The position numbers were made by a program, and so were the translations under genes. Shown piece after piece: positions 6,553 through 64,000 of a stretch of DNA of 64,000 nucleotides (position 1 is the first letter of the stretch; each line of letters starts with the position of its first letter). The notes under the pieces are model-generated. The model was not told the origin of the DNA. It searched no databases and saw only the letters and a program-made list of their open reading frames with translations. The stretch comes from Thermoplasmata archaeon (lineage in GTDB: Archaea > Thermoplasmatota > Thermoplasmata > RBG-16-68-12). The DNA lies in the NCBI GenBank assembly GCA_035636315.1, contig DASPZJ010000050.1, positions 34,831-98,830 on the forward strand, written 5' to 3'.

Positions 6553-6625
6553 GCCACCATAGCTCAGTCGGTAGAGCAGCCGCCTTGTAAGCGGCAGGTC
6601 GGGAGTTCAATTCTCCCTGGTGGCT
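6553..6625 (+). tRNA. tRNA-Thr (anticodon UGU)
   Basis: Manual fold: acceptor GCCACCA/TGGTGGC; D-arm GCTC-AGTCGGTAG-AGC; anticodon stem GCCGC/GCGGC with loop CTTGTAA (anticodon TGT); variable loop AGGTC; T-arm GGGAG-TTCAATT-CTCCC; discriminator T. No encoded CCA. Falls inside the spurious ORF 6427..7080. Confidence 0.85.
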
Positions 6626-19082: not shown

Positions 19083-19949
19083 GTGCGCAAAATCCGGAGC
19101 GGAATCTATGGACTCAACCCGCTCCTCGACGGCGGCCTGAATGAGAACAGCACGACTGTCGTGATCGGCCGGTCGGGCGCGGGCAAGACGACCTTGGCCA
19201 CGCAGTTCATCCGCCGAGGCCTGCAGGAAGGCCAAGAGGGCGTCTTCGTCTCTCTCGACGAAAACAAGGAACAGATCATCCGTGAGGCCGTCGAGATGGG
19301 CTGGTCGGACATCCTCGAGTACCTCGACGACGAGCTTCTCGTGTTCATCGACGCGTCGGGTCGGGAGTTCTCGAACTTCATCCGCAAGGAGCTCCCCGCG
19401 TTCGTCGCGGACTGGAAGGGGAGCAACGCGCGCATCGCGATCGACCCGCTCACGCCGGTCCTCTGGTCGACGAAGGACCTGTACGAGCAACGCGACCTGA
19501 TTGGCTACATGTTCAAGCAGACGCGGAAAGTCGGGACGGTCCTCTGCACGCTCGAGGAACACGGACAGGCGGACCTCGCCGGCCCGGAGACCGTCATCCC
19601 GATGTACCTCGCGGACTGCGTGATCCACTTGAAGTTCAACAGCGACGGCGCGGACCCGTCGCGCCTACTGAAGATCGTGAAGTGCCGGAACAGCCGCCAC
19701 AGCCAAGGGGCCCATGCCTACGAGATCGTCCGCGGCCTCGGGATCGTCCTCGAGGATGTCGACGGCCGCAAGCCCACGACCTCCAAGGCCCCGTCGCAGC
19801 TGCGGCAGATGCTCCTTACCCGCTCGATGCCGAAGAACGTGAGGGACCATCTCGAGAAGTCTCTCGACGGGCTCACGGACGAGGACTTCCGCTCCTTGAA
19901 GCCCGAGCGTGTGCTCGAGATGATCCTCCAGGAGTACCAGGGGGCGTGA
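19083..19949 (+). CDS. KaiC-like / RecA-superfamily ATPase (single-domain, archaeal KaiC/RadB family)
   Basis: IRSGIYGLNPLLDGGL (KaiC N-motif), Walker A GRSGAGKTT, Walker B LVFIDASG. Confidence 0.75.
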   Translation: MRKIRSGIYGLNPLLDGGLNENSTTVVIGRSGAGKTTLATQFIRRGLQEGQEGVFVSLDENKEQIIREAVEMGWSDILEYLDDELLVFIDASGREFSNFIRKELPAFVADWKGSNARIAIDPLTPVLWSTKDLYEQRDLIGYMFKQTRKVGTVLCTLEEHGQADLAGPETVIPMYLADCVIHLKFNSDGADPSRLLKIVKCRNSRHSQGAHAYEIVRGLGIVLEDVDGRKPTTSKAPSQLRQMLLTRSMPKNVRDHLEKSLDGLTDEDFRSLKPERVLEMILQEYQGA

Positions 19950-19950
19950 G

Positions 19951-20643
19951 ATGGCGCGCGGTCTCGGTCGCGCGCTCGAGCAGGCGGTCGCCCGGGACGG
20001 GCCGGACGAGGACCTCGAGATCGAGGGACGCAGCCTCGCGAACGCGCGCCGCCGCCAGATGTTCCGCTATCTCTGCCGCAAGCCGTGCGCTCGGGTCGGC
20101 GAGATCGGGCGGGAGCTCGCGATGTCCCAGGCCACAGTGCGGTGGCATGCGTGGGATCTCGTGGAGAACGGATACGTGCAAATCGAGGGCACCCGGGCGT
20201 TCCCGAAAGGCCTGATCGATCCGGAGGATGCGGCGATGTTCGCGTCCCTCGCGTCGTCGGGCCGAGCCGCCATTCTTGAGGCCGTATTCCGGCAACCGGG
20301 GCTCTCGTTTCAGGAGCTCGCCGCTGCGCTCAGTTTGACGCGGCAGTCCGTGAGCAAGATTGCCTCGGAGCTCGCGGACTTCGGGCTGCTCACCCTCGTC
20401 GACGACGGTCGGTACCGCCGCGTGTATCCGACGGACCTGATCCCGCGGAAACGCGAATCGAACCGGGCCCGGTCGAACGCCTTTGCGGACGGCCTGCTGC
20501 GCCGGCTCACCGAAGAAGGCCTCTCGCCCGAGCTCCTGCGGCGGGACGAGACGACGGTCCTCGTGCGGTTCGGCAGCGGTTCCAAGAAGGTCGTCCTCGA
20601 CGTCACGCTCGACCCGTACGCCACGGCGTGGAAAGGTCCCTGA
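19951..20643 (+). CDS. transcriptional regulator with two ArsR/MarR-like winged-helix domains
   Basis: RRRQMFRYLCRKPCARVGEIGRELAMSQATVRWHAWDLVENGYV and a second wHTH AAILEAVFRQPGLSFQELAAALSLTRQSVSKIASELADFGLLT. Start is 2 nt after the KaiC-like gene. Confidence 0.6.
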   Translation: MARGLGRALEQAVARDGPDEDLEIEGRSLANARRRQMFRYLCRKPCARVGEIGRELAMSQATVRWHAWDLVENGYVQIEGTRAFPKGLIDPEDAAMFASLASSGRAAILEAVFRQPGLSFQELAAALSLTRQSVSKIASELADFGLLTLVDDGRYRRVYPTDLIPRKRESNRARSNAFADGLLRRLTEEGLSPELLRRDETTVLVRFGSGSKKVVLDVTLDPYATAWKGP

Positions 20644-20727
20644 GCGACACGTGTTAACGGATCGTATAGACCCTGTGATAGGGACGATATAAGGCCCTTT
20701 AAGCCCCCGTCCCACCCGCTCTTGTAG

Positions 20728-23700
20728 ATGGACGAGAGCTATCGCGAGTGGCTATCCTCGATCCCCGGATGGACCGCGGACAAGGCGCAGAAGGTCGGGG
20801 AACGCTTCCCCACGTACGAGCTGCTGCGCGCGGCGAGCCGCGACGAGCTCTCGGCGATCGAAGGCCTCACGTCGGGCGAGGCGGACGCCCTATTCGGCCT
20901 GGTGCATGGCACCTCCGAGGGCGATGCGTCCGGCCATCTGTTCCTGTGCCCGGAATGCGGCTCCTTCGCTGGCGCGGGCGCGACGAAGTGCCCGTCGTGC
21001 GGCGTCGAATTCGGCGGCTCCGAAGATATCGCCGTCGGGAAGGAGCTCGACGCCTTCCTCGAGGACGAGGACGCGCCCGCTCGTATCTGTCTCTCGTGCG
21101 GCGCCGCGATGGCGAAAGGGGACGCGACCTGCGGCGTGTGCGGCCGCGAATATCGTAGGGAGGAACTCGCCCTCCTGCCCGGGCTCGATGGGAGCCTCGA
21201 CGAGGAAGCTCCGTTCTGCCCCCGCTGCGGGGCGTATCTCTTCGCGGACGAATCGGAGTGCGCGATCTGCGGCACGGCCCTGAACGCTCCAACGCCCCCG
21301 GTCACGAACGGGAAGGAGAAGGGCGTCGTGAAGGACTTCCTCAGCCGGTGGCAGCGGGTCGCGGACGCCACGGAGACCACGGAGGCGGAGCGGCTCCAGG
21401 AAGAGCTCGATCATTACGATCGGTTGCTGGAGGCGGACCCGACACTCGAGCGGGCGTGGGCGAAGCGCGCGAAGGTCCTCGAGAAACTCGGACGCCCCGC
21501 GGAGGCGGCGGAGTCCCTCGCGAAGGCCGGAGAGCTGAACCCGGCGCGCGAGGACCAGTACCGCGTCGAGGTCCAGGACGTGACGCGGACGAAGGAGGAC
21601 GTGCCCGTCCTGTCGCCGAAATGGCAGCAGCCCGTCGCGACGGCCGCGCCGAAAGCGCTCGATCCCCGACTCATCGAAGCGCTCGATCACTACGAATCCC
21701 TGTTGCGGGCGGACCCATCCCTCGCGGTCGCATGGCGCACGAAGGGCGAGATCCTGGAGCGACTCGGCCGCTCGGACGAATCGCGCGTCGCCCGCGAGCG
21801 AGCGGACCGGCTCGAACGCGACGAGGGTCGCGCCCTCCAGGCCGCCGCGGAAGGACTCCGGGCGCCGGGCCTCGCGTCCTCGGACCTCGCGGGCGGCGGC
21901 CGCATGAACGGCCGCGTCAGCGGCACGAAAGGGGGTCACACGAACGGCCGCACCAACGGCCACACGAACGGCCGCACGAACGGACGCGTGAACGGCCTGT
22001 CGGAGGGCCGCGTCAACGGCCTGACGACCGGCGCGGTGAACGGCCTAACGTTCGGGCACGGGGCGACGAACGGCCTCGTGAACGGGAACGGCTTCACGAA
22101 CGGCCGGCGGGGCCGCTACGGCACCCCGCGGATTCCGGCGCAGCCGCACTGGTCCCACTCCGTCGTGGGAATCGCCGCGGTCGTCGCCCTCATGGTGATC
22201 GTCCCGATCCTCGTGAGCTTCCTTTCTCCGTCCCCCGCCGGGCCGACCTCGATCATCCGGATCGACGGGGATTTCAGCGACTGGTCCAGGTTCCCGGCGT
22301 ACGCGGACTCGCCGACGGACGCGGTCCAGACGCCCGATGTCAACCTCGTCGCCATGAAGGTCGCGACGCAGGACCGGAACCTGTTCGTCGAGGCGCAGGT
22401 TCAGGGCCTCTTGTTCCAGGGCCCCGCCGCAAACCAGACGGGCAGCGTGTTCGTCTTCGTCGACGAAGACAACGACCGCACGACCGGGTACCCGATCGGC
22501 GACCTCGGCGCGGATTCCATGGTCGAGGTGTACGGATGGCGAGATGTGTCCGCGATCCAGCACGGCGTCTCGGCGTTCGCATTCAACGAGACGGGGGTGA
22601 CGCGCTCGAACGACTTCCGGCGGTTCCTGCCTAGCGGCTCCGCGGACGCCGCGTTCCTCGGCTCGCAGATCGAAATCCGAACGACCGTCCGGGATGCGAC
22701 GAGGGCGCGGGTCCTCGTCTACGCGGCGGACAACCTTGGCGGCCGGGACGCGGCGGATGGCTCCGTGCGTCCTTCCCTCCCGACGGTCGTCCTGGGCCAG
22801 CAGACGGTCGCGCCCGACATCGTCACGACGCCCCGGGCGGTCGTCCTGCGAGTGACGCTCGCGCCGCTCGGAGGCGCGCCCCATGTCACCGGGTTGAACC
22901 TCACGCGGGTGGGCGATTCGGCGGACCCGGTTGATGTGGCCCTGTATCGCGATGACGGGAGCGGCGCGCTCGATCCGGCGGATGCGTTCCTCTCGAACGC
23001 GTCGATGACCGCGAACGCCGTCAGCCTCGCGATGAACGAGAATCTCGCTGGGCCGGCGGTGTACTGGGTCGAAGCACGGTGGACGAACGTCACGCCGACG
23101 ACGACGTTCGGATTGACGGTGAGCGGAGTTGGCTCGAACGGCACCGCGAGCTTCCGAGCCCCCGAGACCGGGCTGGTCTACCTTGCTGCGGCACCGTCGA
23201 CGCTGAGAGTCGACGGCGCGTTCGGCGATTGGCGCGGTCAGATGTACGGTCAGGATCTCCTCGGCGACGTCACGAACCGAAGCGGCGCGACGGAATACGA
23301 CGCGAACGTGGACTTGCTCGCGACCGCAGTGAACGTGGCGGCGAACTTCACCGGATACGTTCGGGTGGACGGCCGCATGCTCGGAGGCCAAGACATCCCG
23401 ACCTCCCGCGAGCGGACGTACAATGCGCCCGTCGACACGGACCTCGACGGCGTGCCGGATTCGATCGAGACCCTCCTCGGCGCGGGCCTGTCCCAAGACT
23501 TCAACAACGACAACCGCACCGACGCGATGTCCGCGGGCGACGTGGACGGGGACGGCGTCATCGATTATCCCGCGGGCACCGACTGCTGGTTGAACACGAC
23601 GATCCCGGCATGGTATCCCGCGCCCTATGCGGGCCGAAGCGTGACGCGATTCATCTGCCCGATCGGACAGCCTCCCCAGGAGGGCGTGGACGTCGTGTAC

Positions 23701-25278
23701 GCGTACGTCGACGCCGACAACGCGACGAGCACCGGGCTCCTGTCCGACGTCGAAGGCCGGACGTACGGCTTCGACTACGCGATGGCGGTCATCGGTAGGA
23801 ACGGAGCGGTCAACTCGAGCGGCCTCTATGCCTTCGTGCCGGCTCGAGCGAACCCCTGGGCCCTCGTGCAGCCGATCGCCGTCGCGCTCGACGCGCATCG
23901 GATGGAATTCGCGGTGGACGCGAGCGCGCTGAACCTGGTCGCCGGGTACCGGGTCGTCTACTTCGCGTCGGACTGGCGGCTCGGATACGATGTCGCCCTG
24001 CCGGACGCCGCCGTCGCCCGCTTCCCGATCGCCGCGCAGGCCGCGACGAATCTCGTCATCAACGAGGTCTCGCCCCAGCCGAACGTGGAATGGGCGGAGA
24101 TCGCGAACCCGACGGCGAGCGCGGTCCCCCTGAACGGTTGGACCCTCGCAATCAACCACGGAAACAAGGCCGTCGTCGTCTACACGTTCTCCGGGACGAT
24201 CGGTGCCTGGGGATCCGGGCAGGAGTACCTCGCGGCCTTCTTGCCCGCGAACTCGCTCCCGAACGGCCAGACTCAATTGCTCCTCATGCAAGGGACCACG
24301 GTGATCGATGCGACAACGTACTCGTCGAACTCGGGCAGCGGCCGCACGTGGGCGCGGTTCAAGGACCCTGTGTCAGGCGTCCCTGCAGATACGAACAACG
24401 ATGCGGTGGACTTCTACCTCTCCTTGGCGCCCTCGTCCGGTCGCGCGAACGACCGCCACCGGCCGACGATCGCCCTCGCGAAGACCGCGAGCCGGGTCGT
24501 TGCGGCGCCGGGGGATCTCATCGTCTACACGTTGTATTACAACAACACGGACACGGGCATGGCGAAGTTCGTGTGGGTGAACGACACGCTCCCGGCGGGC
24601 GTTAGTTTTTCCTCGTCGAGCGTGCCGTACAATTCCGTCTCCGGTTCGACGTACGGGTGGGCCTTCACGAACGTGATGCCCGGCGCCCACGCCTTCACGG
24701 TCTCGGTACAGGTCACTGCCGCCACGGCGGATGGACAGGTGCTCCGCAACACGGCGACGTTGGATTACACGGATCAGCTGCGCCGGCCCCTTCCCCGGAG
24801 TCTCGGATGGGGGAACACGACCGTCGTACGACCGATGATCACGGTCGTCAAGATCGCCACGCCGTCGAACGCGAAACCGGGCGACCTGGTCACCTTCACG
24901 ATTTTCTACAACAACACGGGCTCCGTGGCGGCGGGAACGGTCACGATCAAGGACAGTTTCCCGAGCGGACTCGACTACGTCAGCGCGAGCCCGGCGGCAA
25001 CGTGGACGGACGGCCGGACGTTCTACTGGAACTTCACGAGCGTCGCACCGGGCGCCCATTCCCTCACGTTGATCGCGCGGGTGAACGCCAGCTTCTCGGG
25101 ATCGCAACTCGTCAACTGGGCGTTCCTGAATTACACGACGCCCGGAGGATTCCCGCTGATCGGGAGCAGTTCCTCGACGGTGGTGGCGATCCCGGAGCTC
25201 TCGGATATGATCTTCGTCGCGGCGGTCCCGTTGCTCATCATCGGGCTGAAAATCCGCGCGAAGCGGCGCGTCGAATAG
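20728..25278 (+). CDS. giant single-pass membrane protein: cytoplasmic HhH + 3 double-Zn-ribbons + TPR + (x-T/V-N-G)n repeat, TM, ~1000-aa extracellular domain with DUF11-like repeats, C-terminal PEF-CTERM-like anchor
   Basis: 1516 aa. N-terminal LSSIPGWTADKAQKVGERFPTYELLRAASRDELSAIEGLTSGEADAL (HhH-like). CPECGSF...CPSCGVEF, CLSCGAAM...CGVCGREY and CPRCGAYL...CAICGTAL are zinc ribbons. TPR-like helical repeats (ERAWAKRAKVLEKLGRPAEAAESLAKAGELNP...). NGRVSGTKGGHTNGRTNGHTNGRTNGRVNGL... repeat. TM helix SVVGIAAVVALMVIVPILVSFL. Many N-x-S/T sequons. C-terminal domains of the form ...YTLYYNNTDTG... and ...FTIFYNNTGSVAAGTVTIKD... (DUF11 / conserved-repeat-domain-like). Ends AIPELSDMIFVAAVPLLIIGLKIRAKRRVE (tripeptide + TM + basic tail). 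Confidence 0.8.
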   Translation: MDESYREWLSSIPGWTADKAQKVGERFPTYELLRAASRDELSAIEGLTSGEADALFGLVHGTSEGDASGHLFLCPECGSFAGAGATKCPSCGVEFGGSEDIAVGKELDAFLEDEDAPARICLSCGAAMAKGDATCGVCGREYRREELALLPGLDGSLDEEAPFCPRCGAYLFADESECAICGTALNAPTPPVTNGKEKGVVKDFLSRWQRVADATETTEAERLQEELDHYDRLLEADPTLERAWAKRAKVLEKLGRPAEAAESLAKAGELNPAREDQYRVEVQDVTRTKEDVPVLSPKWQQPVATAAPKALDPRLIEALDHYESLLRADPSLAVAWRTKGEILERLGRSDESRVARERADRLERDEGRALQAAAEGLRAPGLASSDLAGGGRMNGRVSGTKGGHTNGRTNGHTNGRTNGRVNGLSEGRVNGLTTGAVNGLTFGHGATNGLVNGNGFTNGRRGRYGTPRIPAQPHWSHSVVGIAAVVALMVIVPILVSFLSPSPAGPTSIIRIDGDFSDWSRFPAYADSPTDAVQTPDVNLVAMKVATQDRNLFVEAQVQGLLFQGPAANQTGSVFVFVDEDNDRTTGYPIGDLGADSMVEVYGWRDVSAIQHGVSAFAFNETGVTRSNDFRRFLPSGSADAAFLGSQIEIRTTVRDATRARVLVYAADNLGGRDAADGSVRPSLPTVVLGQQTVAPDIVTTPRAVVLRVTLAPLGGAPHVTGLNLTRVGDSADPVDVALYRDDGSGALDPADAFLSNASMTANAVSLAMNENLAGPAVYWVEARWTNVTPTTTFGLTVSGVGSNGTASFRAPETGLVYLAAAPSTLRVDGAFGDWRGQMYGQDLLGDVTNRSGATEYDANVDLLATAVNVAANFTGYVRVDGRMLGGQDIPTSRERTYNAPVDTDLDGVPDSIETLLGAGLSQDFNNDNRTDAMSAGDVDGDGVIDYPAGTDCWLNTTIPAWYPAPYAGRSVTRFICPIGQPPQEGVDVVYAYVDADNATSTGLLSDVEGRTYGFDYAMAVIGRNGAVNSSGLYAFVPARANPWALVQPIAVALDAHRMEFAVDASALNLVAGYRVVYFASDWRLGYDVALPDAAVARFPIAAQAATNLVINEVSPQPNVEWAEIANPTASAVPLNGWTLAINHGNKAVVVYTFSGTIGAWGSGQEYLAAFLPANSLPNGQTQLLLMQGTTVIDATTYSSNSGSGRTWARFKDPVSGVPADTNNDAVDFYLSLAPSSGRANDRHRPTIALAKTASRVVAAPGDLIVYTLYYNNTDTGMAKFVWVNDTLPAGVSFSSSSVPYNSVSGSTYGWAFTNVMPGAHAFTVSVQVTAATADGQVLRNTATLDYTDQLRRPLPRSLGWGNTTVVRPMITVVKIATPSNAKPGDLVTFTIFYNNTGSVAAGTVTIKDSFPSGLDYVSASPAATWTDGRTFYWNFTSVAPGAHSLTLIARVNASFSGSQLVNWAFLNYTTPGGFPLIGSSSSTVVAIPELSDMIFVAAVPLLIIGLKIRAKRRVE
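21904..22105 (+). repeat. tandem 12-nt repeat (consensus ACGAACGGCCGC) encoding the x-T/V-N-G peptide repeat
   Basis: ~16 imperfect units visible in sequence 21904-22105, inside the 20728..25278 CDS. Confidence 0.7.
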
Positions 25279-25367: not shown

Positions 25368-25508
25368 GTCGCCGGCCCAAGCCCTCCTCAAAGGAGGGCA
25401 GGCTTCCCACGGGCTCGCGCACCGTAGTACCGCAGGGAACGTGGGCGGGCTTAACTTCCGGGTTCGGGATGGGACCGGGTGTATCCCCGCCGCTTTGGCC
25501 GTCAAACC
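25368..25508 (-). rRNA. 5S ribosomal RNA (with an apparent ~20-nt 3'-proximal hairpin insertion; ends approximate)
   Basis: Minus strand reads TTTGACGGCCAAAGCGGCGGGGATACACCCGGTCCCATCCCGAACCCGGAAGTTAAGCCCGCCCACGTTCCCTGCGGTACTACGGTGCGCGAGCCCGTGGGAAGCC. This matches the archaeal 5S consensus (CCCATCCCGAAC, GGAAGTTAAGCCC, GTGCGCGAGCC, TGGGAA). It is followed by a perfect hairpin GCCCTCCTttgAGGAGGGC and GGGCCGGCGACC. A TATA-like GATATATC lies ~30 nt upstream on the minus strand (25536-25543). Confidence 0.75.
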
Positions 25509-59131: not shown

Positions 59132-61345
59132 TCAGGAGACTTCGGGCCCGCGCGGGAATGGGGACGGCATTCGGCTGTAGAGCGACGGGTCCCCCGTCTG
59201 CGGCTGCACTCTCTTCAGCGCGGCCTCGAAATGTCGTTTCTCGATCGCGACCTTCTTCAGGCCGGCCTCGTCGAGCTTCGGGAGCTTCAACGCGACGTCG
59301 CGGATGGCCAGCATGGACGCCTCGTTGCAGACCGCCGCGAGCTCCGCCCCGGTGTACTTGTCGGTGCGACGAGCGACGTCGTCGAGGTCGACATCCTTCG
59401 CGAGGGGCTTGTTGTGCGTGTGGATCTCGAGGATCGCCTTGCGGGTGGCGAGGTCCGGTGGCGGCGTGTAGATGTGGCGGTCGAATCGGCCGGGCCGCAA
59501 CAACGCCGGGTCCACGAGGTCCATCCGGTTCGTCGCCGCGATGACGGTCACGTTGTGCAACTCCTCGAGCCCGTCCATCTCCGTGAGGATCTGCGAGATC
59601 ACCCGCTCCGTGACCTGGGAGTCCGCGGACATCCCGCGGACGGGCGTGATCGCGTCGATTTCGTCGAAGAAGATGATGCACGGGGCCGCGGTCTTCGCTT
59701 TGCGGAACGTCTCGCGCACCATGCGCTCGCTCTCCCCGACCCACTTGCTGAGGAATTCGGGCCCGCGGACCGAGATGAAGTTCGCCTCCGACTCGGTGGC
59801 GACGGCCTTCGCGAGGAGCGTCTTTCCCGTGCCGGGCGGACCATAGAGCAGGATGCCGCGCGGCGGCCGGGCGTCGAAGTGGGCGAACAGCTTGTTCATC
59901 GTCAGGGGCCATTCAATCGATTCTCGGAGTTCTTGCTTCGCCTCGTCGAGGCCGCCGATGTCCCCCCATCGGACGTTCGGCTTCTCGATGAGGACCTCGC
60001 GCATCGTCGAGGGCTCCATCTCCCGGTACGCCTGCAGGAAGTCGTCCCGCGTGACAACGAGCCGGTTCAGCACCTCGGGCGGGATGTTGTCCACCTGCAG
60101 GTCGATCTCGGGCAGGATCCGCCGCAGCGATCGCATCGCCGCCTCCTTGCAGAGGGCCGCCAGGTCCGCGCCGACGTAGCCGTGCGTGATCCCGGCGAGT
60201 TCCTTCAGGTCGACGTCTTTGGACAGGGGCATGCCGCGCGTGTGGATTTGGAGGATCTCCAGGCGTCCGTCGCGGTCCGGCACCCCGATCTCGATCTCGC
60301 GGTCGAACCGGCCCGGCCGTCGGAGCGCGGGATCGAGTGCGTTCGGACGGTTCGTCGCGCCGATCACCACGACCTTGCCGCGGGCCTGCAAGCCGTCCAT
60401 CAGCGCGAGCAACTGGGCGACGACCCGTCGCTCGACCTCGCCCGTCACCTCGTCCCGTTTCGGGGCGATCGAGTCGAGCTCGTCGATGAAGATGATGCTC
60501 GGCGCGTTCTCCTCGGCCTGCTTGAACATGTCGCGCAGGTTCTCCTCGCTCTGACCGTAGAACTTCGACATGATCTCGGGCCCGGAGATGGAGTAGAAGT
60601 TCGCGTTCGTCTCCGAGGCGACCGCCTTCGCGAGGAGCGTCTTGCCGGTGCCCGGCGGACCGTGGAGGAGCACCCCCTTCGGGGCCTCGACGCCGAGCCG
60701 CTCGAACAGCTCCGGATGGCGGAGGGGCAGCTCGATCATCTCGCGGACCTTCCGGACCTCGCCGCCGAGCCCGCCGATGTCTTCGTAGTCCACCTTCGGG
60801 ACCTTCGCTTCCTCCTCTTTGATCGGCTTCTCCGCGATCTTGATGTCCGTCCCGTCCTCGACGAGGACGGCGTCCGCCCCCGGCGAGAACGACGTGACGA
60901 CGAAGTCGAACTTGCGGCCCATGATGCTCACGCTGATCACGTCGCCGCGGGTGATCGCGCGCCCCCGCAGGACCTGCGCCATGTACTGCTCTCCGCCCAT
61001 GATCCGGATCGGTTCCGTCGGCGCGAGGCTCAGCTTGTCCGCGGGCCGGGCGAACGCCTTCCGGAGGCCGACTTTGTCGTCCAGGCCGACGCCCGCGTTG
61101 CGACGTTGCATGCCGTCCATGCGGATCACGCCGCGGTTCGCGTCCTCCGGGTAGCCGCGGCGTACGCTCGCCGCGGTCGACTTCGTGCCCTCGATGAGCA
61201 CGATGTCCTCTTCCTTCAGTTCCAAGATCCGCATGACTTCCGGATCGATCCGGACGATCCCGCGACCGGCATCCGCGGCCTTCGCCTCGGCGACCCGAAG
61301 GAACTTCTCACGGCCGCTCGCCATGGTGGGCACCTTTCCTGTCAC
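59132..61345 (-). CDS. cdc48: Cdc48/VCP-like AAA+ ATPase (two AAA domains)
   Basis: N-domain then two GPPGTGKT Walker A motifs ([18 protein letters not shown]; [18 protein letters not shown]), DELD Walker B, second region homology. Alternative start M at 61324. Confidence 0.9.
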
Positions 61346-61560: not shown

Positions 61561-61734
61561 TTACATCTCGCGCTTCACGGTAATCGGGATCGCGCCGCTA
61601 TTGAATTCGACCCATGCGATTTCGATCGGGTCCACGACGCCGGTCGGCACATCCACGAGGATCGGCGACCCCATGCTGATTTGCAGCGCCCGCGCTCCGA
61701 TGATCCGGGCCTTCTCAAATCGCGTGTATCGCAT
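61561..61734 (-). CDS. rpoK: DNA-directed RNA polymerase subunit K (Rpb6 homolog)
   Basis: [57 protein letters not shown]. 57 aa. Track ORF extends to 61893 with junk. Confidence 0.8.
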
Positions 61735-62048
61735 CGCGGATCCCTGGGCAGGCCGCGGTCGAAGGTATTCACTGTCGGACGGGGACGGCCGTAGGACGCC
61801 GGAATTGGGTGCCTCTACTTCAACCTTGCTTCGGGCCGTCGGGAAGGGCCGATTCTCTTGGGCCGACAGGAACGCGTGGGACGCCGTTGCCAATCGTCAC
61901 CGCCCCGCCGGATTCCAGAGCCTTCGAGATGTTCGTTCCACCCGATTGTAATCGGAGATGAGAATCCCGGGGATTCCCTTATCAACCCCTAGCTCCACGA
62001 CGAATAGAGTTCGGGCTCGCGGCCGCGTTCTCCAGAGGCTTCCCCGTC

Positions 62049-62669
62049 ATGGACCAGCAGGCGTTCCGACAGACGATCGTCCTCCTCTCGGGAGAGCACA
62101 GCCTGTCGATTCTCCGCGGGCTGCGCGACGGCGGCTGGCATCTCTCGAGCGAGGTTGCACGGAGCCTGCACATCCACATCACGACCGCGTCGAAGTTCCT
62201 TCAGCGGTTCGCGGAGCTCGGCCTCGTCGAGCGGCGGCAGCACGATTCCCGGACGTTCGAATATCGCCTCCGGAACGCCCGCCTCCGCCTCGAGCTCGAC
62301 CTCGAGGACGACGCCGGGCCGCTTCGCGAGGTGGTCGACTTCTACGTCGCGTACTTCCACTCCCTGTTCGAACGGATCCGGTTCGTTGGCACGCCGTCGA
62401 TCGAGTCGGAGATGGAGCACCGCCTGACGACGGATCATCAGGAACTGCGCAAGGCCGTCTTCGATCAGATGGTCGTCGGCAGCGATGGGGGCATCGACCG
62501 TCTGCGCGAGCTCGTCGCAGCGGTGCATCGGGATCTCTGGACCGTCTGCGCGCAAGGCCTTGGCGCGAGCGCTGCGAAAGGCGTGTTCCAGGGCGCCCTC
62601 CGAGACGCGATCGGCGCCTACCCCGACCTCGCGGTGCGGTGCGGATTGAGCCGCCCCCTCGAGGGGTGA
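62049..62669 (+). CDS. winged-helix (ArsR-like) transcriptional regulator with C-terminal helical domain
   Basis: IVLLSGEHSLSILRGLRDGGWHLSSEVARSLHIHITTASKFLQRFAELGLVERRQ... Confidence 0.55.
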   Translation: MDQQAFRQTIVLLSGEHSLSILRGLRDGGWHLSSEVARSLHIHITTASKFLQRFAELGLVERRQHDSRTFEYRLRNARLRLELDLEDDAGPLREVVDFYVAYFHSLFERIRFVGTPSIESEMEHRLTTDHQELRKAVFDQMVVGSDGGIDRLRELVAAVHRDLWTVCAQGLGASAAKGVFQGALRDAIGAYPDLAVRCGLSRPLEG

Positions 62670-62712
62670 TCCTACGACGCGGATCGAGACCGGCATTGAG
62701 GGATTCGACGCA

Positions 62713-64000
62713 ATGGTTCAAGGCGGACTGCCCGAAGGCTCGAGCGTCCTGCTGCAGGGCCCTCCGGGCCAGGAGAAGTTGCGGTTCGCGCTCACGTTCC
62801 TCGCGGAAGGCCTGAAGGCAGGCGGCAGCGGGCTCGTCCTGATTTCGTCGCAATCGCCCGAAGCGGTCCTCGCGGAACTGCGGGAGTTCGGTGTGAATCT
62901 CGACGCGGTCACGAAGGAGAATCGCATCCGGGTCGTCGACTGGTACTCCTGGAGCGAGGAGCCGGTCGAGGACGTCGAGGAACGCGGGGCGGTCGTGCGC
63001 TCCTCGATCGACCTGACGAACCTCGGCGTGGCGCTGAGCCGCGCGATCGCGGGCCTCGTCGGCGAGTTGCCGCGACGCGCCGTGATCGAGATCCTATCGC
63101 CCGCGACGAACGTCTACGAGGTCACCCAGGTCTACGCGTTCGCGCAGAGCGCGAAGAGGAAGTTCGACCGTTCGCGGTTCACGAGCCTCGTCCTCCTCGA
63201 GAAAGACATGCACTCCGCGTCCGAGCTGACGACGCTCCATCAGCCCTTCGACGGCGTGATCGAGATCGAGCGATCGCGGAGCGGAGATCGGATCGTCCGG
63301 AAGATCGGCGTGCTCCACATGAAAGACACGGCCCCGGACGCCTCGTTCCGGATCCTCGATGTGACGGAGACCGGCATGAGGGTCGTGCGGGATACGTCGA
63401 AGCCCCCGGTCCCGCTGCCGGCCCATGGCGGCGGAGTCCTCGAGTCACAGGACGAACGGGCCCGCCGGCTCCATCTCATCATGCAGATCGCGAGCGAGCG
63501 CCTGAAGCTCAACCCGCGCGATCCGGACGCCCTCTTCGCCCTCGCCGCCGCCCAGGCGACCCTGGACGATGCCGCGGGGGGCGTGCAAACCCTCGACCGC
63601 CTCGCGGGCCTCGATCCAAACTACCCGGGGCTCTGGGTCCTCAAGACGAAGCTCCATGCTCGCCTCGGTCAGACGGATCTCGCAAAGGAGAGTCGGGTGC
63701 GGGCCGCGAAGGAAGAAACGGAAACGGACCTCCCCGCCGGTCCGACGGTCCCATGTCCGATGTGCGAGGCGCCCGTGGCGCCTGGCGCGACGACGTGCGG
63801 GAACTGCGGCATCCGATTCGCCCCCGCCCGGACCCTCGAGGACGAGCTCGACGACCTCGGCCACGCCGCGATCCAGGAGATGGTCCAAGAGGAACTTGCC
63901 ACCCCGCCGAAGGCCCCCGCCAAACCGGGACCGAAGGCGGAGCCGCGGCCTTCCGAAACCCCCTCGACGAAGAAGGGGATGACGAACGGGCTCGCCCTCG
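62713..64000 (+). CDS. KaiC-like (degenerate Walker A) domain fused to TPR + double Zn-ribbon + TNG repeat; runs off window end (partial)
   Basis: Frame open from 62650 to 64000. Conserved KaiC N-motif IETGIEGFDAMVQGGLPEGSSVLLQGPPGQEKLRF begins before the first ATG (62713). Later come TPR-like LNPRDPDALFALAAAQATLDDAAGGVQTLDRLAGLDPNYPGLWVLKTKLHARLG, CPMCEAPVAPGATTCGNCGIRF and terminal ...KKGMTNGLAL. Not in the ORF track (no in-window stop). Confidence 0.6.
   Translation, partial: MVQGGLPEGSSVLLQGPPGQEKLRFALTFLAEGLKAGGSGLVLISSQSPEAVLAELREFGVNLDAVTKENRIRVVDWYSWSEEPVEDVEERGAVVRSSIDLTNLGVALSRAIAGLVGELPRRAVIEILSPATNVYEVTQVYAFAQSAKRKFDRSRFTSLVLLEKDMHSASELTTLHQPFDGVIEIERSRSGDRIVRKIGVLHMKDTAPDASFRILDVTETGMRVVRDTSKPPVPLPAHGGGVLESQDERARRLHLIMQIASERLKLNPRDPDALFALAAAQATLDDAAGGVQTLDRLAGLDPNYPGLWVLKTKLHARLGQTDLAKESRVRAAKEETETDLPAGPTVPCPMCEAPVAPGATTCGNCGIRFAPARTLEDELDDLGHAAIQEMVQEELATPPKAPAKPGPKAEPRPSETPSTKKGMTNGLAL

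Follow-up and report, generated by a model that had tools for sequence, protein, structure and literature searches.

For inactivated KaiC-like (iKaiC) proteins, archaeal proteins in which the ATPase site is disrupted, a role within archaeal signalling hubs has been put forward (Makarova, Galperin & Koonin 2017, mBio; cited here through PMC5847659), and, as far as the theme is set out in PMC5847659, they show genomic links to winged helix-turn-helix (wHTH) proteins, KaiC paralogues and sensor-like parts. The present study concerns a locus of this kind at the end (62049..64000) of a 64,000-nucleotide stretch of DNA from a Thermoplasmata archaeon (GenBank assembly GCA_035636315.1, contig DASPZJ010000050.1, positions 34,831 to 98,830; hereafter, the window), in which a wHTH gene is followed by a receptor-like gene that opens with a degenerate KaiC domain, referred to below as pseudo-KaiC. 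The locus is like the iKaiC theme in its archaeal origin, its disrupted ATPase site and its gene neighbourhood, and unlike that theme, as known through PMC5847659, in that the inactivated domain is the N-terminal head of a bitopic protein of ~1,560 amino acids with tetratricopeptide-like (TPR) repeats, a zinc ribbon, a TNG repeat and an ectodomain. The single-domain archaeal KaiC-like ATPases PH0284, PH0186 and SSO2452 and the CI domain of cyanobacterial KaiC have the same fold and the same TGIxGFD motif; they carry GxxGxGK(S/T), a Glu pair and an Asp, at which positions pseudo-KaiC has Glu and Leu, Ser-Gln, and Glu, respectively. No clock components were seen near the pseudo-KaiC gene.

The start of the receptor-like gene has its own precedents. 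The AUU start codons of E. coli infC and pcnB are, like the codon proposed here, one base from AUG and placed behind a good ribosome-binding context, and the near-cognate starts of eukaryotes include ACG. The likely consequence of non-AUG initiation, here as in those systems, is low or regulated output; the evidence for the archaeal case presented here is evolutionary, not biochemical. Termination–reinitiation coupling (Huber et al. 2019, 2023) likewise involves co-directional genes, here with the stop codon 4–5 nt from the next start, but in most of the cases described in that work the genes overlap by 4 nt or 1 nt and the starts are canonical, whereas the window has a +4 gap and a near-cognate start. 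The domain architecture is a variant of the inactivated-KaiC theme that is unannotated in databases, and the novel part is the recurrent ACG/ATT start pattern.

Our joint reading, to which we assign a probability of roughly 0.62, is that the locus is a two-gene operon, that its second gene is translated from ACG at 62674 in coupling with the wHTH gene, and that the dead KaiC head serves as a docking or oligomerisation platform. The features on which this reading rests are as follows.

62049..62669, + strand: wHTH regulator gene of 206 amino acids (open reading frame call), with the TGA stop at 62667..62669.
62661..62672, + strand: Shine-Dalgarno (SD)-like sequence GAGGGGTGATCC, overlapping the end of the wHTH gene.
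62674..62676, + strand: ACG, the proposed near-cognate initiation codon, where orthologues have ATG.
62674..62712, + strand: 13-codon leader, T/M-T-R-I-E-T-G-I-E-G-F-D-A, with the N-terminal beta-strand and the TGIxGFD motif of the KaiC fold.
62683..63393, + strand: inactivated KaiC-like (RecA-superfamily) domain, from Pfam, PDB sequence matches and Foldseek.
62713..62715, + strand: first canonical ATG (Met14), the start taken by gene callers, which may be a secondary start.
62758..62781, + strand: degenerate Walker A, GPPGQEKL (compared with GxxGxGK(S/T)), from the sequence and alignments.
62848..62853, + strand: Ser-Gln where KaiC has the catalytic Glu-Glu pair, as aligned with KaiC CI and with the KaiC of an active neighbour gene.
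63079..63096, + strand: Walker B-like strand AVIEIL, with Glu for the Asp of active KaiCs (RLVVDSLS aligned with RAVIEILS).
63442..63717, + strand: TPR-like helical repeats, from sub-threshold Pfam TPR matches and helices in an orthologue model.
63754..63810, + strand: single zinc ribbon, CPMC-x10-CGNC (Pfam Zn_ribbon_3, E=2e-5, under its cut-off).
About 63970-63979 to 64000 (window end), + strand: start of the (GRTNGLTNGL)n repeat, from the sequence.

To place the locus among its relatives, 129 related loci were fetched from GTDB genomes and JGI metagenomes. All relatives of this high-GC window are Thermoplasmata or "Methanobacteriota" metagenome-assembled genomes (MAGs) from soil, sediment and groundwater. 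Among the 118 loci with enough flanking sequence, a wHTH gene was located upstream of the pseudo-KaiC gene in 109; in 89 the wHTH gene was followed directly by the pseudo-KaiC gene, in 20 an active KaiC gene stood between the two, and nine had other layouts. An active KaiC of ~235 amino acids, with the Walker A motif GPAGSGKS/T, was present upstream in 21 of the 118 loci. In the three-gene operons (L030, L033-L035, L042-L046, L048, L049, L051, L058 and L131-L139), stops and starts abut or overlap (for example GGTGGTCTGAGTG and GGTCTGATG, with TGAGTG and TGATG), and in the loci with an adjacent wHTH gene, a gap of 4–5 nt, 4 nt in the window, separates the wHTH stop from the start codon of the receptor gene. 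These data demonstrate that Thermoplasmata of soil and groundwater share a conserved operon of two genes, and that 62049..64000 holds its 5' part. Genes that overlap or lie only a few nucleotides apart, a spacing that termination–reinitiation coupling requires, are enriched for subunits of heteromeric complexes (PMC10666635). The active neighbour KaiC could be aligned with pseudo-KaiC over its full length (27% identity, E=5e-18). Because distant relatives keep this full-length alignable active KaiC between the wHTH and pseudo-KaiC genes, the ancestral operon probably encoded a regulator, an ATPase and a dead-ATPase receptor, and the clade of the window lost the operonic ATPase gene; the fusion would therefore accompany an ATPase lost from this clade's operon rather than replace one.

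The first gene was as annotated in the first pass, in that its coordinates, weak helix-turn-helix matches and a predicted winged helix agreed. The 206-amino-acid protein gave weak matches to MarR, IclR and HTH_20 (Pfam) and to ArsR/SmtB (NCBIfam), all under the curated cut-offs. An AlphaFold2 (AF2) model built with 60 homologues (mean predicted local distance difference test score, pLDDT, 82.8) placed an ArsR/SmtB-like winged helix at residues ~1-80 and, behind it, an all-helical C-terminal domain of four to five long helices. A Foldseek search against the PDB returned no match at E <= 0.001; the best matches (CadC, HlyU and SmtB) covered only the winged-helix part, and the C-terminal helical domain was left without a match. 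In nearly all of the 120 homologues listed, the length is exactly 206 amino acids, with identities of 62-95%.

The frame of the second gene is open from 62650 to the window end and overlaps the wHTH frame by 18 nt. Translated from 62650, it matched the KaiC family (PF06745) with E=3.7e-26 and 92 bits (cut-off, 26.6), covering positions 1-229 of the 231 in the profile and running from position 62683 onward, and it matched DUF7504 (PF24336) with 37.4 bits against a cut-off of 27 over the whole profile (1-179 of 179). In databases, members of the family are named "DUF7504 family protein", "ATPase domain-containing protein" or "hypothetical". A sequence search of the PDB with the pseudo-KaiC domain returned KaiC (E=2e-20) and PH0284. 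An AF2 model of an orthologue (P0011), calculated as a monomer only, had a pLDDT of 80-94 over residues 1-240 and was superposed by Foldseek on PH0284, SSO2452, PH0186 and KaiC CI with a TM-score of ~0.8, so that the KaiC fold is retained.

The active-site motifs were different in all three places compared. The Walker A of pseudo-KaiC, GPPGQEKL, aligned with GTPGTGKT of KaiC CI and with GPAGSGKS of the active neighbour KaiC of L030, the last Gly being replaced by Glu and the Ser/Thr by Leu. At the catalytic pair, tfEEsp of KaiC CI corresponded to ssQSpe, and LEEN of the L030 KaiC to SSQS; at Walker B, VVDSLS of the active KaiC corresponded to VIEILS. Among the 120 homologues listed, Walker A was readable in 98, and Glu occupied the position of the last Gly in 98/98, Ser or Thr followed the Lys in 0/98, and the exact sequence GPPGQEKL was found in 80/98. 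Where the respective pattern was found, the catalytic-pair segment ended in SSQS or ASQS in 73 of 91 homologues, and the Walker B Asp position was Glu in 91 of 91. The proposal of the first-pass annotation that the degenerate Walker A marks a probably dead enzyme was thus borne out and extended to the Glu-Glu pair, now Ser-Gln, and to the Walker B Asp, now Glu. As judged from these alignments, the KaiC domain of the receptor-like gene is catalytically dead, and the degeneration is common to the whole family. With disrupted motifs conserved family-wide and a regulatory gene neighbourhood, pseudo-KaiC fits the iKaiC class.

Behind the KaiC domain, TPR-like helices follow. The Pfam TPR matches at 63442..63717 were all under the cut-offs (E 3e-4 to 0.1), and in the P0011 model the region was predicted as five helices forming helical hairpins (pLDDT ~90); it also aligned with the TPR region of another receptor-like gene of the window, 20728..25278. 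The double zinc ribbon that had been annotated turned out to be a single one: only four Cys are present in the whole cytoplasmic part, all in the ribbon at 63754..63810, and two of them are nearly invariant alignment columns.

The remainder of the receptor lies beyond the window and was examined in relatives. The exact wHTH protein was found on contigs of six other samples (L001-L006); five of these assemblies (L001-L005) carry the whole receptor gene, and the sixth contig ends inside the gene. In these five, the receptor was called as 1549 amino acids from the ATG equivalent to 62713, which corresponds to ~1,560 residues if counted from ACG 62674. The ATPase-like domain and the receptor-like protein are covalently joined in a single gene in the full copies, and a transmembrane helix and an extracellular domain, both predicted by the first-pass annotation to lie just past the window edge, are present in all five. 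Hydropathy placed the transmembrane helix at residues 568-586 (numbered from ACG); it is followed by an ectodomain of ~940 amino acids that is rich in Thr, Ser, Ala and Gly and contains N-glycosylation sequons and DxDxDG-type motifs, and by a second hydrophobic segment (residues 1529-1547) and a basic tail, RRPRARRSRR. The receptor translation contained no N-terminal signal sequence and two hydrophobic segments in all, with basic residues flanking the two transmembrane helices on the N- and C-terminal sides. Because of the missing signal sequence and these basic flanks, the topology is likely to be bitopic, with the N-terminus inside, a large outside domain and the C-terminus inside.

The TNG repeat, whose start had been noted at the window edge, begins at about 63979 and continues in the full copies to about ten GRTNGLTNGL units, or ~100 amino acids, within what is in the family a low-complexity linker of ~100-150 amino acids. 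This region had a pLDDT of 33-45 in the P0011 model and is predicted to be disordered. The repeat is cytoplasmic and juxtamembrane, rich in Arg, Thr, Asn and Gly, and without a Pfam match, and the number of units varies between close relatives from ~5 to >15 (L001:11900-12250; P0002, P0011, P0022, P0060 and P0111).

From this architecture and the operon layout, we infer that the protein and its wHTH partner form a membrane signalling or tethering module. The dead KaiC head would probably act as a docking or oligomerisation platform rather than as an enzyme and may bind the co-translated wHTH protein and perhaps an active KaiC paralogue, encoded in the operon in relatives or acting in trans; the wHTH regulator could then be tethered at, or released from, the membrane depending on what the ectodomain encounters. 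Given the predicted disorder of the linker, control by clustering, tethering or proteolysis appears more likely than a rigid conformational relay. The threonines of the TNG repeat might, speculatively, serve as phospho-acceptors. Membrane-tethered control of transcription is familiar from bacterial anti-sigma factors and ToxR-like regulators. In the present pair, as in those systems, a DNA-binding protein is encoded next to a membrane-spanning partner that has a large outside domain and could retain the DNA-binding protein or set it free; the pair differs from them in lacking any homology, in having a KaiC-fold pseudo-enzyme as its head, and in the lack of a protease or sigma factor. Two points speak against a signalling role: the ectodomain has no recognisable ligand-binding domain, and the operon of the window is without an active KaiC, the intact KaiC at 19083..19949 being encoded in another module.

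The receptor could instead be mainly a structural surface protein, such as an adhesin or envelope component, in which the pseudo-KaiC/TPR head anchors the protein to an intracellular scaffold and the wHTH protein only regulates the operon. The large Thr/Ser/Ala/Gly-rich ectodomain with its sequons and DxDxDG-type motifs would suit such a role, as would a C-terminal anchor like those of archaeal surface proteins, the DUF11 and lamin-tail domains of the paralogue 20728..25278, and the disordered linker, which is a poor conduit for a signal. On the other hand, the wHTH gene is a tight and near-universal companion of the receptor gene, joined in relatives by an active KaiC; the cytoplasmic part of ~560 amino acids is conserved beyond the needs of an anchor; and KaiC-family and inactivated-KaiC proteins have been proposed as signalling components, as related in PMC5847659. 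We regard a mainly structural role as unlikely, while giving it more weight than any of the competing explanations of the start codon considered below.

The start of the second gene was examined in the window and across the relatives. As the first-pass annotation had pointed out, the conserved domain begins upstream of the first ATG: the in-frame stop is located at 62647..62649, KaiC homology begins at 62680, the first ATG is at 62713, and the 21 codons between stop and ATG contain no ATG, GTG or TTG. A product starting at ATG 62713 would begin MVQGGLPEGSSVLLQGPPGQEK, and the leader read from 62674 is (M/T)TRIETGIEGFDA. The junction of the window reads TGA-tcct-ACG-ACG-CGG-ATC. In the orthologues L007 and L008, an ATG 4-5 nt after the wHTH TGA opens "MTRLATGIEGFD..." or "MVRLASGIEGFD...", so that the ACG of the window is the ancestral ATG altered by a single T to C change. 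The ACG adjoins an SD-like sequence: GGTGATCC agrees over 8 nt with the extended SD consensus GGAGGTGATCC, the anti-SD being assumed from the general archaeal 16S rRNA because the window contains no 16S gene. A distance of 7 nt separates the end of the GAGGGG core from the ACG, and for GGTGA the distance is 4 nt.

The junction (62560..62760) was identical, bar two single-nucleotide polymorphisms, in six further assemblies, and the same leader was found in more metagenome contigs. The two polymorphic positions, 62687 and 62712, define two natural alleles, one in L001 and L003 and the other in the window, L002 and L004-L006; they comprise GAG/GCG (Glu/Ala at leader residue 5, with Ala in relatives) and a synonymous GCA/GCG difference. 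About a quarter of the 120 database homologues listed were called from the internal "MVQGGLP" Met. In the four of these that were checked at the DNA level, the start position was ACG (L010, L011 and L012) or ATT (L009).

A census of the codon at the start position was carried out for 99 loci with a wHTH stop just upstream. The codon was ATG in 54, ACG in 34, ATT in 8, TTG in 2 and GTG in 1. Thus, 42 of the 99 loci, with 18 distinct leaders, carry ACG or ATT and lack any canonical start in frame ahead of the conserved motif. None of these 42 contained a stop codon or frameshift in the leader, even though some were about 20% diverged. In a neighbour-joining tree of 75 unique sequences, built from 690 nt of the gene body with the leader excluded, parsimony gave at least 11 start-codon changes, including three from ATG to ACG, two from ACG back to ATG, and three origins of ATT. 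Between the ATT lineages and the closest ATG relative of each, identity is 92-95%. The ACG lineages differ by up to 20% at the nucleotide level within one clade, and by 23% overall, with ACG kept; the "ACG ACG" clade of the window (eight unique sequences) represents a separate origin, its nearest ATG relative, L014, being 84% identical. In an SD scan of all junctions, GGAGG or GAGGGG, running into TGAT(C/T)C, overlapped the wHTH stop in every ACG/ATT lineage.

The same exchange was observed in a second gene. The active KaiC gene of L043 (1783-1785) and that of L046 (same position) have ATT where that of L030 (1790-1792) has ATG; this ATT overlaps the end of the wHTH gene. No usable canonical start precedes the conserved N-terminal motif of this KaiC, the next one being a GTG only a few codons before Walker A. 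In three other loci, the start position was CTG (L138, 1577-1579; L051, 1788-1790) or GCG (L044, 2492-2497) where relatives have ATG or GTG; these start codons are ambiguous, with an open frame or canonical codons further upstream. A sub-family of pseudo-KaiC genes (L024, L103, L106, L109 and L127; "VPRQSTGVEGFDEMVQ"), which has no upstream wHTH gene, starts with a GTG that immediately follows an in-frame TAG or TAC; as L022 and L024 belong to a single MAG, this sub-family probably represents another paralogue. Two other candidate starts inside the leader of the window, ATC 62683 and ATT 62695, were rejected, since relatives do not conserve them (CTC/CTG and GTC/GTT) and they lie 13-25 nt from the SD. 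The database protein P0002 ("MGDPTTR..."), which starts four codons upstream of the ACG and might represent a compensating new start, has no DNA record and carries an internal deletion, and it was not used.

The leader itself behaves as coding sequence. The residues R, T, G, G, F and D do not vary across the 18 distinct ACG/ATT leaders, although their codons differ synonymously (ACC/ACG, GGC/GGG, GGA/GGT, TTC/TTT and GAC/GAT). Reconstructed on the tree, synonymous to nonsynonymous changes in the leader were 17:20 on non-canonical branches and 52:56 on canonical ones, and the changes at the first, second and third codon positions numbered 13/4/23 and 31/26/66, respectively. The constraint on the leader is, by these counts, that of a coding sequence in the KaiC frame, the same with or without ATG. 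Residues 1-13 of the P0011 model form a strand and the start of a helix (pLDDT ~87), and as they are structured in the model, their loss would truncate the KaiC fold. Because ACG replaces the ATG of orthologues and adjoins an SD, because the switches recur, and because the leader stays constrained, these data strongly suggested ACG 62674 as the translation start of gene 2, used in place of ATG 62713 or alongside it.

Initiation at ACG would probably be aided by the strong SD and by termination–reinitiation of ribosomes finishing the wHTH gene, and, with a coupled gene ahead of it, a weak start codon would hold the large receptor at a low level compared with the wHTH regulator. At somewhat less than even odds, we venture further that in these Thermoplasmata ACG and AUU are genuine selectable starts, comparable to the near-cognate starts of eukaryotes but set in a coupled operon led by an SD, that they are toggled with ATG to tune the receptor:wHTH ratio, and that the pair constitutes an uncharacterised archaeal transmembrane signalling route based on the dead KaiC head.

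Several observations weigh against translation from the near-cognate codon or limit the evidence for it. ACG is outside the start set of translation table 11. The rate of change of the leader is ~1.4x that of the gene body on non-canonical branches, compared with ~1.1x on canonical ones. Met14 (ATG 62713) is kept in every ACG/ATT lineage, so that a shorter product could be made also or instead. The switch count is approximate, coming from a simple neighbour-joining tree on 690 nt. At the ACG itself, 0 third-position changes were found against ~2 expected over the non-canonical branches, which is suggestive but only weakly significant alone. The limitation of the start codons to neighbours of ATG is weak evidence, as any single mutation of ATG gives one; the evidential weight is for this reason placed on the persistence of the codons, the reversions and the leader constraint. 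In E. coli, near-cognate and non-canonical codons yield 0.01-3% of the output of AUG; GFP initiated at ACG there carries an N-terminal Met and in part Thr (bioRxiv 10.1101/063800). Archaeal starts are described as AUG, GUG and UUG (PMC4705826, PMC7531240). Initiation in archaea uses factors of eukaryotic type, aIF1 and aIF2, and Sulfolobus aIF1 rejects AUU in vitro (PMC4705826). In ribosome profiling of Haloferax, ~30% of putative alternative initiation sites were near-cognate and were set aside by the authors (PMC7261190). Our literature search found no report of an ACG start in archaea; its coverage was incomplete and the absence is unproven.

The strongest competitor of the ACG start is translation from ATG 62713 alone, with the ACG as the remnant of a lost start and the first 13 residues of the KaiC fold missing. 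Gene callers pick this ATG, a GAGGGA motif lies ~11 nt upstream of it, its Met14 is, as noted, kept across all ACG/ATT lineages, and ACG is not accepted as a prokaryotic start. A dispensable remnant, however, sits poorly with a leader whose constraint equals that of ATG lineages, with its invariant R, T, G, G, F and D and its third-position bias, and with 18 non-canonical leaders free of stops and frameshifts, some of them ~20% diverged. The non-canonical start position, moreover, is always ACG or ATT and reverts to ATG, and the segment removed would be a structured part of the predicted fold. We consider initiation at ATG 62713 only to be rather improbable, less so than the two remaining biological alternatives by a wide measure.

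A programmed +1 frameshift near the end of the wHTH gene, with a prfB-like SD before UGA, would fuse the regulator to the receptor in a protein of ~1,770 amino acids. The KaiC frame is indeed +1 relative to the wHTH frame and open from 62650 with an 18-nt overlap, and in the window a CCCCC run (62654..62658) and GAGGGG stand directly before the UGA. Against this, no slippery site is common to the non-canonical lineages, whose last sense codons are GGG, GGA or GAA, and GGA to GAU or GAA to AAU would be unable to re-pair; the layout is no different in the ATG lineages, which require no shift; and a sense codon within a fusion would be free to vary, yet ACG and ATT alone occur. Nor are the "fusion" proteins of the databases read-throughs of the junction. 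The wHTH-KaiC fusion proteins P0001, P0049, P0086, P0101 and P0109 were rejected as assembly artefacts: P0001 runs through the third frame, and the other four have internal deletions joining similar short sequences (several at LRELV... / LRE.GVNLD). Frameshifting, one of the three explanations offered by the first-pass annotation for the missing start, is accordingly highly improbable.

Scarcely any more credence can be given to C-to-U editing of the mRNA, which would turn ACG into AUG. ACG start codons are edited in this way in plant organelles, ACG is the commonest non-ATG state (34/99 loci), and the DNA data alone are compatible with editing; to our knowledge, however, C-to-U editing of mRNA is not known in archaea, the ATT codons (8 loci and L043/L046) are left unexplained, and near-cognate initiation alone accounts for both ACG and ATT. 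Finally, a sequencing or assembly error around 62640-62720, with a true sequence of ATG or another frame, was suggested by the first-pass annotation and might be feared of a metagenome-assembled genome, but it can be dismissed, as the junction is the same in six further assemblies from different samples and in more contigs, and the two natural alleles differ at other positions. Among the explanations that had been offered, the non-canonical start was thus upheld by the 99 loci, and the frameshift and the error were not.

A second module with the same theme is present in the same window, with the following features.

19083..25278, + strand: paralogous module of an active KaiC, a double-wHTH protein and a receptor-like protein.
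19083..19949, + strand: active KaiC with Walker A GRSGAGKT, a separate intact ATPase.
19951..20643, + strand: double-wHTH protein with two helix-turn-helix units (Pfam).
20728..25278, + strand: receptor-like protein with zinc ribbons, TPR, TNG repeat, transmembrane helix and ectodomain (Pfam and alignment).

The second receptor, from its TPR region to residue ~1190, aligned with 20728..25278 at 30% identity over 951 columns (E=5e-71). Because of this alignment, the two receptor-like genes of the window are taken to be paralogues, the second having pseudo-KaiC added at its N-terminus. Pseudo-KaiC and the KaiC of 19083..19949 are remote paralogues (31% over 71 amino acids, E=4e-9), with GPPGQEKL in the former and the intact GRSGAGKT in the latter. 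Sequence comparison of the two wHTH proteins detected no similarity, and the idea of their homology was dropped. The gene order at 19083..25278 is KaiC-wHTH-receptor, differing from that of the second module, and all three genes have canonical starts. The description of 62049..64000 as a second copy of the module therefore holds for the receptor part and the overall theme, but not for the wHTH genes or the gene order. Several parts of 20728..25278 are absent from the second receptor, namely three zinc ribbons, two DUF11 repeats, a lamin-tail domain and, at the N-terminus, a segment resembling a helix-hairpin-helix; conversely, the C-terminal ~350 amino acids of the second receptor have no counterpart in 20728..25278. 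A 5S rRNA gene (25386-25506, - strand) is located just downstream of the first receptor gene, and the window contains one tRNA gene (6553-6625, + strand). Next to the two-gene operon, and divergent from it, lie genes for a CDC48/VCP-type AAA ATPase (59132-61345, - strand) and for the RNA polymerase subunit Rpo6/K (Rpb6; 61561-61893, - strand); this synteny was also found in L001, L002, L007, L008, L009 and L011.

The proposal that KaiC-family proteins form signalling hubs gains in this locus a concrete and widespread case, with 129 loci found in soil, sediment and groundwater: a dead KaiC is joined to a surface-exposed transmembrane protein and paired with a near-invariant DNA-binding protein of 206 amino acids, ancestrally together with an active KaiC. 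If the ACG and ATT starts are confirmed, archaeal ribosomes, with their eukaryotic-type initiation factors, use near-cognate starts in nature. Gene finders follow the AUG/GUG/UUG rule for archaeal starts; the annotation would then be truncated at the N-terminus for at least a quarter of the family (roughly one in four database homologues, and 42 of the 99 loci), and probably for other genes as well.

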